Position numbers and translations under genes: made by a program | The notes under the pieces: model-generated | The model's input: only the letters and a program-made list of their open reading frames with translations | Database searches by the model: none | Told to the model about the DNA's origin: nothing | Shown here: positions 7,755-11,655 of the stretch, piece after piece | Numbering within the stretch: position 1 is the first letter of the stretch | How the letters are laid out: every line of letters starts with the position of its first letter | IMG/VR virus record: IMGVR_UViG_2627853844_000002 | Source of the DNA: a virus | Taxonomy: Duplodnaviria > Heunggongvirae > Uroviricota > Caudoviricetes | Direction: 5' to 3' (one strand) | DNA length: 19,945 bases

Positions 7755-8054
7755 AAAAATTCCTTAATACTGATAACTTGGCGCACTATACACACGTTCC
7801 TGAAGAAAGCTATAGTTTTTTGATGGGGTTGAAGATGGCTGGATGTCTAAAATAAACATTGCTTCATATGTTCAACTATGCGTTAATGATTGCGTCGGTT
7901 TGAAGAACAGACGATATACGAAGTAGTTTACTAAAGCAGTTCTCATTTCAGGTGTTATTCACTTATTCCTTCTTTGAGTCTCTCCAATTAAGTACGAAGT
8001 CGTTTCTGTTATGCAAACCATTTATGCCGAAAGGCTCAAGTTAAGGAATGTAGA

Positions 8055-8270
8055 ATGTCAAATAAAATGACTGGTTTAGTAAAATGGTTTAACGCTGATA
8101 AAGGTTTCGGCTTTATTTCTCCTGTTGATGGTAGTAAAGATGTGTTTGTGCATTTTTCTGCGATTCAGAATGATAATTATCGAACCTTATTTGAAGGTCA
8201 AAAGGTTACCTTCTCTATAGAGAGTGGTGCTAAAGGTCCTGCAGCAGCAAATGTCATCATTACTGATTAA
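8055..8270 (+). CDS. cspB: Cold-shock protein CspB (71 aa)
   Basis: ORF translation [71 protein letters not shown]. Confidence 0.95.
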
Positions 8271-8381
8271 AATTCATCGCTCGTCTGTATACGATAACGA
8301 AGAAGGCTGATGCCTGAGTAGAGATACGGACAGAGTAGTGAATATTGGATCTCTTTAATAAAAAGTAAGGAGGTCCAATAC

Positions 8382-8633: not shown

Positions 8634-8804
8634 TCAGGCTACAGCTTTAAGATTTGTCTGGAATACTTTGTTGCAATGAGGGCAGATCAAAAGGGCACCT
8701 TTTTGTACTCTTGAAAAACTGTGTTCTGACTCTTGGGTGCAGTTTGGGCAGGAACATTTAACGAGATAATTACGGCGTGATTTTGAGTTTTTACGTTCTG
8801 ACAT
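8634..8804 (-). CDS. Small zinc-ribbon protein (56 aa; C-x-C-x2-C ... C-x2-C); possibly the small protein annotated as ynfU in recent K-12 annotations
   Basis: Internal Met of ORF 8634..8855: MSERKNSKSRRNYLVKCSCPNCTQESEHSFSRVQKGALLICPHCNKVFQTNLKAVA; AGGA SD about 8 nt upstream of the ATG. Confidence 0.5.
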   Translation of the reverse strand: MSERKNSKSRRNYLVKCSCPNCTQESEHSFSRVQKGALLICPHCNKVFQTNLKAVA

Positions 8805-10579: not shown

Positions 10580-10941
10580 GGTAATATTAAATCGGAACAT
10601 TTACATCGCGGAATGTAAAATTTAAATAAAAAGGACTCTTCCATGAGCCAAAATTCCTGAAATCTTAAGGGTAAGATAAAAGGTCTTAATCAGAATGACA
10701 CGTTTTATTAATAAATAAAGCTATTCTTTCATTGCTGTGTTTTTCTTTACAAAAGTAATCCTTGCTATGGGTGGTTAATCATGCGTTAATGGTGTTCTGG
10801 TTTGTTACAAATTTATCTGAAGCAGTCATTGTTATAATTTTATTATTTGTACCTCTTGAGATTTCCTTGTTGGTTTTTCTCTCTGATATTTTTTTTCGGA
10901 CCATTCTGCCCAAGGGCTAATTTCTTCAAAAGGTAATAATT

Positions 10942-11154
10942 ATGTCTAACAAAATGACTGGTTTAGTGAAATGGTTTAACCCTGAAAAAGGTTTTGGTTT
11001 CATCACGCCGAAAGATGGCAGCAAAGATGTGTTTGTCCATTTCTCAGCAATTCAGAGCAACGATTTCAAAACATTAACTGAGAATCAGGAAGTTGAATTT
11101 GGTATTGAGAACGGACCTAAAGGTCCTGCCGCTGTTCATGTAGTGGCGCTTTGA
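10942..11154 (+). CDS. cspI: Cold-shock protein CspI (70 aa)
   Basis: ORF translation [70 protein letters not shown]. Confidence 0.95.
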
Positions 11155-11353
11155 GGTAGACAATATTACAAACCATATTCACTTTAGATGCCCGTGTTGT
11201 CATGGTTCCCAGTATAGAACATCATCTTTTGATGTTTCTGACATGAATCCTTTCGGGGCAAAATGTATCTTTTGTAAATCAATGATGATTACATTTGATA
11301 ATATTTCACAATACTTAAATGCCAGCCGTCTGTCGTTGGATTTAAAAAAGTGA
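11144..11353 (+). pseudogene. Zinc-ribbon-like reading frame (paralog of the 8634..8804 ORF) lacking any canonical in-frame start before its first Cys cluster; only the C-terminal 36 codons (ATG 11243) are conventionally translatable
   Basis: Frame +1 relative to cspI reads ...FRCPCCHGSQYRTSSFDVSDMNPFGAKCIFCKSMMITFDNISQYLNASRLSLDLKK*; an ATG at 11188 is out of frame by one nucleotide (ATG CCC GTG ... stops after 9 codons). Confidence 0.35.
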
Positions 11354-11358
11354 AAATG

Positions 11359-11386
11359 AAGGCTCCTTCGGGAGCTTTTTTGCTTG
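11359..11386 (+). terminator. Rho-independent terminator downstream of cspI and the zinc-ribbon frame
   Basis: GCTCC-TTCG-GGAGC hairpin (11362-11375) followed by TTTTTTG. Confidence 0.7.
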
Positions 11387-11499
11387 GTGTCTATTCGATG
11401 GATACTCACATACTACGGTAACATCATGAAAAAAATCATAGTTTTTTTAACTCTGAACCAGCAGTGGTAGTGCCAGCGATGACTGGAGTTAACACCATC

Positions 11500-11655
11500 A
11501 TGCGTGAATATCCAAATGGCGAAAAAACACACCTTACTGTAATGGCCGCAGGGTTTCCATCTCTGACCGGAGATCATAAAGTCATTTATGTAGCCGCGGA
11601 TCGACATGTTACTTCAGAAGAAATTCTGGAAGCAGCAATAAGGCTCTTGAGTTGA
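11500..11655 (+). CDS. ynfN: Small Qin prophage protein YnfN (51 aa)
   Basis: Internal ATG of ORF 11464..11655: MREYPNGEKTHLTVMAAGFPSLTGDHKVIYVAADRHVTSEEILEAAIRLLS; length matches recollection. Confidence 0.6.
   Translation: MREYPNGEKTHLTVMAAGFPSLTGDHKVIYVAADRHVTSEEILEAAIRLLS

Follow-up and report, generated by a model that had tools for sequence, protein, structure and literature searches.

The cysteine-rich frame that follows cspI in the window (the whole stretch of DNA analysed, 19,945 nucleotides), which has no canonical start codon ahead of its first cysteine cluster, is a known gene: ynfQ, its protein family and its ATT start codon are already recorded in RefSeq and Pfam. Very probably, ynfQ is the second cistron of the cold-inducible cspI mRNA, is translated from the AUU codon at 11165, and yields a zinc-ribbon protein of 62 residues. 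The whole stretch is the Qin prophage of Escherichia coli K-12, and the region from 10930 to 11660 matches E. coli K-12 chromosomes with 100% identity and occurs in approximately 2100 of 5426 complete E. coli genomes. Within it, ynfQ is a prophage copy: its chromosomal counterpart is ymcF, which lies downstream of cspG and resembles ynfQ in protein family (Pfam PF23641), length (62 residues), sequence (approximately 65% identity) and the placement of an ATT codon 10 nt after the csp stop codon. The order of genes is parallel at the two loci (cspG-ymcF-ymcE-gnsA versus cspI-ynfQ-ynfR-ynfN-gnsB), but ymcF is nearly universal (5414 of the 5426 complete E. coli genomes), whereas ynfQ is prophage-borne and found in the approximately 2100 genomes mentioned above.

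Gene content of the region

The RefSeq annotation of K-12 was transferred to the window (window coordinate = L001 coordinate + 7429; Table 1). Since ynfU and ynfQ are both in RefSeq, the two Cys-rich frames singled out in the original prediction, the one after cspI and another on the minus strand near cspB, are both annotated genes. The prediction had described the open frames correctly: the plus-strand frame is open from 11144 to 11353 (70 codons, with CIFCKS in its course and LKK before the stop codon), lies at +1 relative to cspI, opens 8 nt before the cspI stop codon, and contains no in-frame ATG, GTG or TTG before the codon of its first cysteine at 11189; the first canonical in-frame start is the ATG at 11243, from which a C-terminal ORF of 36 residues is possible; the ATG at 11188 lies one nucleotide off the zinc-ribbon frame, in the frame of cspI, and runs for nine codons before a stop (MPVLSWFPV); and the minus-strand frame is present with the Cys motifs ascribed to it. 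What had been overlooked is the in-frame ATT at 11165, with the GAGG that ends 8 nt upstream of it. Immediately after cspI there is indeed, as had been proposed, a genuine small frame that encodes a zinc ribbon and lacks a canonical start, but none of the three explanations offered for it (a frameshifted pseudogene, a +1 shift from the out-of-frame ATG, or synthesis of the C-terminal 36 residues only) holds.

Table 1. Features of the cspI-ynfQ region and its surroundings in the window.
Feature	Position	Strand	Source and remarks
cspB	8055-8270	+	RefSeq
ynfU	8634-8804	-	RefSeq, "putative zinc-binding protein", 56 aa
Thermoregulator mRNA element, cspA type	10796-11181	+	Rfam RF01766, 112.8 bits (gathering score 78)
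cspI	10942-11154	+	RefSeq; stop codon TGA at 11152-11154, 10 nt before the ynfQ start
Shine-Dalgarno sequence GAGG	11153-11156	+	Overlaps the cspI stop codon TGA; 8 nt between GAGG and ATT
ynfQ	11165-11353	+	RefSeq, "cold-shock protein / cold shock small protein YmcF"; 62 codons and stop
ynfQ start codon ATT (AUU), non-canonical	11165-11167	+	RefSeq and codon comparison
First zinc knuckle, CPCC (Cys9, Pro10, Cys11, Cys12)	11189-11200	+	Alignment
Second zinc knuckle, CIFC (Cys34 to Cys37)	11264-11275	+	Alignment
ynfR	11356-11421	+	RefSeq; ORF of 21 aa
Terminator-like hairpin followed by U run	11358-11383	+	RNA folding, -14.9 kcal/mol, z-score -2.7
ynfN	11426-11655	+	RefSeq, flagged as frameshifted
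gnsB	downstream of ynfN	+	RefSeq

Several features of the surroundings are recorded here in their own right. The ynfN gene of K-12, labelled 'frameshifted' by PGAP, is truly frameshifted: it has a run of seven T residues (11443-11449) where E. coli lineage L006 has eight, and an intact 76-aa form starting MKK(I/V)IVFF is found in lineage L006 and in Trabulsiella (L012). The ynfR ORF overlaps the terminator-like hairpin and U run directly 3' of the ynfQ stop codon. A second full-length match to RF01766 lies over the cspB mRNA (7894-8286, 158.8 bits, compared with 112.8 bits for the cspI mRNA). The name ynfQ has also been given to another gene: in Table 1 of VanOrsdel 2018 it denotes a different ORF of 37 aa between ydfJ and ydfK, which appears to be the ORF later named ynfT, because the Qin region of a later list starts with ynfT at the same coordinate (1632890). 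The detection data of that study are accordingly not applicable to the 62-aa ynfQ.

Comparative evidence for the ATT start codon

Eighty of 277 genome matches were fetched as loci, representing about 20 enterobacterial genera; 79 were usable, and in each the codon located eight codons before the first cysteine was read. This codon is ATT in 54 loci (Escherichia, for both ynfQ and ymcF, most Citrobacter, Kosakonia, Scandinavium, Yokenella, Trabulsiella, Pseudescherichia and others), ATG in 21 loci (Klebsiella, Raoultella, Leclercia, Silvania, Enterobacter, Citrobacter sedlakii and Shimwellia pseudoproteus), and ATC in four loci (Salmonella, L014, L033 and L048; Siccibacter, L061). The orthologues of Salmonella and Siccibacter also have the overlap of stop codon and Shine-Dalgarno sequence 10 nt upstream, and AUC appears to serve as their start codon. 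In the 21 of 79 loci with ATG, this canonical start stands in frame exactly where the ATT is. Among the 58 loci with ATT or ATC, 25 (the ynfQ locus and 24 others) lack any canonical start in frame from the upstream stop codon to the first cysteine.

A per-codon table of the 72 unique DNA sequences identifies position 1 as the sole codon that alternates among ATT, ATC and ATG. Codons 5 to 20, including CPCC, are nearly invariant as amino acids, and synonymous codons are used freely among them (six for Arg8, four for Gly14, four for Ser15 and five for Arg18); the retention of amino acids through synonymous change indicates that the N-terminal half with CPCC is translated and under purifying selection. 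Ahead of position 1 lie five hypervariable codons (12 different residues at codon -1), with one exception: codon -4 admits only AAG, GAG, CAG or TAA, since the stop codon and the Shine-Dalgarno sequence overlap there. The overlap is conserved as T(A/G)AGG, 9-11 nt upstream of the start, and its distance is fixed in all csp-linked loci. Coding constraint begins at position 1 or one to two codons later, and this onset, together with the alternation of ATT, ATC and ATG, is the signature of a start codon. Three characteristics of an infC-type AUU start were found at ynfQ: AUG at the same position in orthologues, GAGG or AAGG 8 nt upstream, and no canonical alternative. Initiation at the putative start codon ATT 11165 is the explanation supported by curated annotation and comparative evidence together. 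Among the papers searched, none gave a direct experimental mapping of the N-terminus or initiation site of YnfQ or ymcF (by toeprint, retapamulin/Onc112 profiling peak or N-terminal peptide); the tetracycline-inhibited profiling paper considered NUG codons alone.

Alternative readings of the frame

The alternative that fares best, although it is very unlikely, is a CspI-YnfQ fusion made by a prfB-like +1 frameshift at the terminal CUU UGA G of cspI, either beside separate initiation or in place of it. The gene ends in CTT TGA G (11149-11155), the +1 frame is that of ynfQ and is open from 11144, and the CUU UGA of the mRNA (CTT TGA, 11149-11154) has the slippery codon and stop codon of the RF2 (prfB) frameshift site, a slippery CUU U with a stop codon and a downstream frame at +1 being shared with prfB; in C. 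sedlakii, moreover, a csp ORF is naturally in frame with ymcF. Unlike prfB, however, cspI lacks a Shine-Dalgarno-like stimulator 3 nt ahead of the CUU, where the sequence reads GUAGUGGCG, and the combination of a prfB-type stimulator and a conserved site was not found (upstream sequence GTAGTGGCG). The last csp codon varies among orthologues (CTC, GTA, CGC, CGT, ACT), and the four codons that separate the stop codon from the ATT are hypervariable. The distance from the csp stop codon to the ATT is 9, 10 or 11 nt depending on the genus, so that the frame relation to csp shifts from genus to genus, which fits independent initiation or re-initiation and not frameshifting. With a site that is not conserved, no stimulator and variable spacing, the prfB-like frameshift is set aside as a conserved mechanism, although E. 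coli itself might make a CspI-YnfQ fusion at a low level.

Still less probable is a start at another near-cognate in-frame codon such as ATT 11177 (codon 5), which is mostly conserved as Ile. Codon 5 is CTC (Leu) in ymcF of E. coli and its relatives (7 of 72 sequences) and is never ATG; ATT 11177 lies 20 nt from the Shine-Dalgarno sequence, and the alternation among ATT, ATC and ATG is confined to position 1.

That the frame is a frameshifted or start-less pseudogene, a decayed and untranslated copy of a zinc-ribbon gene, is hardly credible. The absence of a canonical in-frame start, the location in a defective prophage and the real frameshift in neighbouring ynfN of K-12 all speak for decay, but the start-less arrangement is under strong purifying selection across many genera, since dozens of species have kept it, as has the paralogue ymcF, which nearly every E. 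coli genome carries; the amino acids are invariant under synonymous change from codon 5 to codon 46; and no intact 'ancestral' form exists in another frame, the ATG of the orthologues that possess one being located exactly where the ATT is. Equally hard to credit is the production of only the C-terminal 36 residues. The ATG at 11243 is the sole canonical in-frame start, but the methionine that it encodes (Met27) is not conserved: position 27 is Lys in 49% of sequences and is occupied by nine different residues, Met being found only in ynfQ of the K-12 type and Arg in a close E. coli variant (P0001). Conservation is highest in the N-terminal half, where the first knuckle lies, and the 36-mer would carry only one CxxC. 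The least probable of all, although an ATG followed by CCC G is indeed present at 11188, is a start there with a +1 shift on CCC-G that leads into the zinc-ribbon frame. Just 29 of 79 loci have ATG as this triplet (it is CTG in 29, GTG in 11 and TTG in 10), its first base being the synonymous third base of Arg8 that precedes the TG of Cys9. This ATG also has no Shine-Dalgarno sequence, and a protein begun at it would be missing the invariant Cys9 and the conserved I5-H6-F7-R8.

Expression of ynfQ

With initiation at AUU 11165, the expression of ynfQ would proceed as follows. The cold-inducible cspI mRNA would carry the gene as its second cistron, and translation would start at the near-cognate AUU by means of the GAGG that overlaps the cspI stop codon. 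[quoted passage not shown]

Several observations bear on the transcript. There is no terminator in the 10 nt between cspI and ynfQ, and a hairpin with a U run occurs only after the ynfQ stop codon; this plus-strand hairpin was missed by a consensus terminator scan and was revealed by direct folding. The RF01766 element spans the cspI leader, the cspI coding sequence and the ynfQ start site. In transcriptomes, ynfQ is co-induced with cspI and ynfN (PMC11228462), and cold shock strongly raises the level of the protein encoded by the next ORF, detected as YnfR-SPA (PMC6001520).

A known parallel in start codon and arrangement is infC, which is also cold-inducible and begins with AUU shortly after the stop codon of the preceding cistron (UAA GGU AUU; PMC3592434, PMC5499595); pcnB shares the AUU start codon, and a 2017 paper counted only infC and pcnB as AUU-initiated genes of E. 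coli (PMC5499595). In a standard context AUU is 6-8 times weaker than AUG, and at an infC-like stop-GGU-AUU junction about half of the initiation is re-initiation and half is de novo (PMC3592434). Messages that begin with AUU are selectively depressed by IF3, and the discrimination is thought to be weaker in the cold (PMC5499595). The two systems differ in the distance from stop codon to start codon (10 nt for ynfQ versus 3 nt for infC) and in the fate of the codon: AUU has been exchanged for AUG in several genera within the YmcF family, whereas the AUU of infC is extensively conserved (PMC5499595).

Linkage to csp and choice of start codon

An intact csp gene ends 9-10 nt upstream in 46 of the 79 loci, and every one of these has ATT or ATC, never ATG. 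Conversely, all 21 ATG loci are without a separate csp cistron at that place, having instead csp remnants, a new upstream context or an in-frame csp-ymcF fusion, although these ATG loci derive from only about 3-6 independent lineages, so that the correlation comprises few independent data points. Eight further loci were compared with the rule that a csp stop codon upstream goes with ATT or ATC and the absence of csp with ATG, and seven conform to it: Dickeya lacustris (csp on the same strand, stop codon 11 nt upstream) and Pluralibacter gergoviae (csp on the same strand, stop codon 10 nt upstream) have ATT, and E. hormaechei, K. quasipneumoniae, K. aerogenes, Kluyvera and S. blattae, which have no csp upstream, have ATG. 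The eighth, Tenebrionibacter, does not conform, as it has GTG or ATG with csp upstream on the same strand; in addition, eight Pseudescherichia loci retain ATT without any csp gene upstream. Because of the exceptions in these two genera, the link between coupling and ATT is not absolute. The modestly new point is that almost every locus in which csp ends 9-11 nt upstream has ATT or ATC, and most loci without it have ATG.

The arrangement in C. sedlakii NBRC 105722 (L008, approximately 1297-1686) is peculiar: the csp ORF is in frame with ymcF, there is no stop codon for 89 codons before the first cysteine, and an ATG is located 68 codons before the ymcF ATG. Either the locus encodes a natural Csp-YmcF fusion, or the assembly is in error here.

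As a tentative explanation of the pattern, which may well prove wrong, AUU or AUC might be held by selection specifically where the translation of ymcF or ynfQ is coupled to csp (where the csp stop codon and the Shine-Dalgarno sequence overlap, 9-11 nt upstream), ribosomes from the massively translated csp message re-initiating at a weak, IF3-sensitive codon, and AUG might take over upon loss of csp. If so, the output of the zinc-ribbon protein would be tied to the translation of Csp and to the relaxed fidelity of IF3 in the cold.

The YmcF-like protein family

YnfQ (residues 1-62) matches positions 1-62 of the Pfam family PF23641, YmcF-like, with an E value of 6.9e-32 and 109.9 bits (cut-off 27). 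A search of 5.8 billion proteins yielded 132 homologues, nearly all of them enterobacterial and mostly 62 aa long. The columns of CPCCHGSQ and GAKCIFCK are invariant or nearly so among 25 aligned homologues, with Cys34 retained in 90% or more (it is Tyr in one of the 25). Among the 72 unique DNA sequences the same two motifs, including CIFC, are invariant except for Cys11 (97%), so that Cys9, Pro10 and Cys12 are present in every sequence, with synonymous codon variation throughout. NCBIfam contains no HMM for YmcF, and YnfQ gives only sub-threshold matches there, to ECs_2282_CxxC.

With its two CxxC knuckles, the 62-residue protein is most likely a four-cysteine zinc ribbon. An AlphaFold2 model of YnfQ, of moderate confidence (pLDDT 69), has short strands around both knuckles and a C-terminal helix. 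A Foldseek comparison of the model with the PDB gave no significant match, and the non-significant matches were generic zinc ribbons (TFIIE-alpha, ribosomal protein chains, NrdR and an RNA polymerase II subunit, chain L). A 2026 review modelled YnfQ as rubredoxin-like (PMC13348028). The linkage to csp and the one apparently natural in-frame csp fusion suggest a role beside Csp proteins, and the best guess is that YnfQ acts as a nucleic-acid-binding or ribosome-associated zinc-ribbon partner in the Csp cold-shock response.

YnfU and other zinc ribbons near csp

The minus-strand frame, ynfU, had been taken for a paralog of the frame after cspI. The two genes have in common that each encodes a small protein with two CxxC knuckles and lies near csp genes; they differ in that ynfU has a canonical ATG, is on the opposite strand and belongs to another Pfam family (PF23499, E value 3.5e-31, and also NF038384). 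A tagged form of YnfU, which has a pair of CPxC zinc knuckles, has been detected, at the highest level among a set of new small proteins (Weaver et al., preprint 10.1101/511675). YnfQ matches neither PF23499 nor NF038384 and is accordingly not a member of the YnfU family, although both proteins weakly touch NF047912, below its cut-off. BLASTP of YnfQ against YnfU returned no alignment at E<=100, and hhalign of a 25-sequence YmcF profile against a 20-sequence YnfU profile gave a probability of 4.6% over 8 columns, pairing the first knuckle of one family with the non-equivalent second knuckle of the other. Neither these results nor the separate Pfam families, PF23641 and PF23499, support paralogy. 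Nothing beyond the generic CxxC...CxxC pattern is shared, and the resemblance is that common zinc-ribbon pattern, not a demonstrable paralogy.

The proximity of the two genes is another matter. An ORF of the YnfU family is found within 1.5 kb of csp-ymcF in 15 of 88 loci (L021, L024, L030, L041, L043, L054, L056, L060, L064, L066, L070, L071, L078, L086 and L087) from several genera, always on the strand opposite ymcF. The YnfU and YmcF families co-localise near csp genes, and this genomic association is real.

Significance

The start-less frame after cspI needs no new biology. The lesson that it offers is that a conserved frame without a start codon can be a gene with a near-cognate start and not a pseudogene. 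If they are translated as proposed, ynfQ and ymcF would add two genes to the AUU-initiated infC and pcnB of E. coli, becoming by the count given above the third and fourth natural examples, both of them in the cold-shock response. The relation between start codon and csp linkage amounts to a hypothesis of coupled, IF3-gated translation in cold-shock operons, and the linkage of csp to two unrelated families of small zinc-ribbon proteins points to an unexplored part of the cold-shock response.
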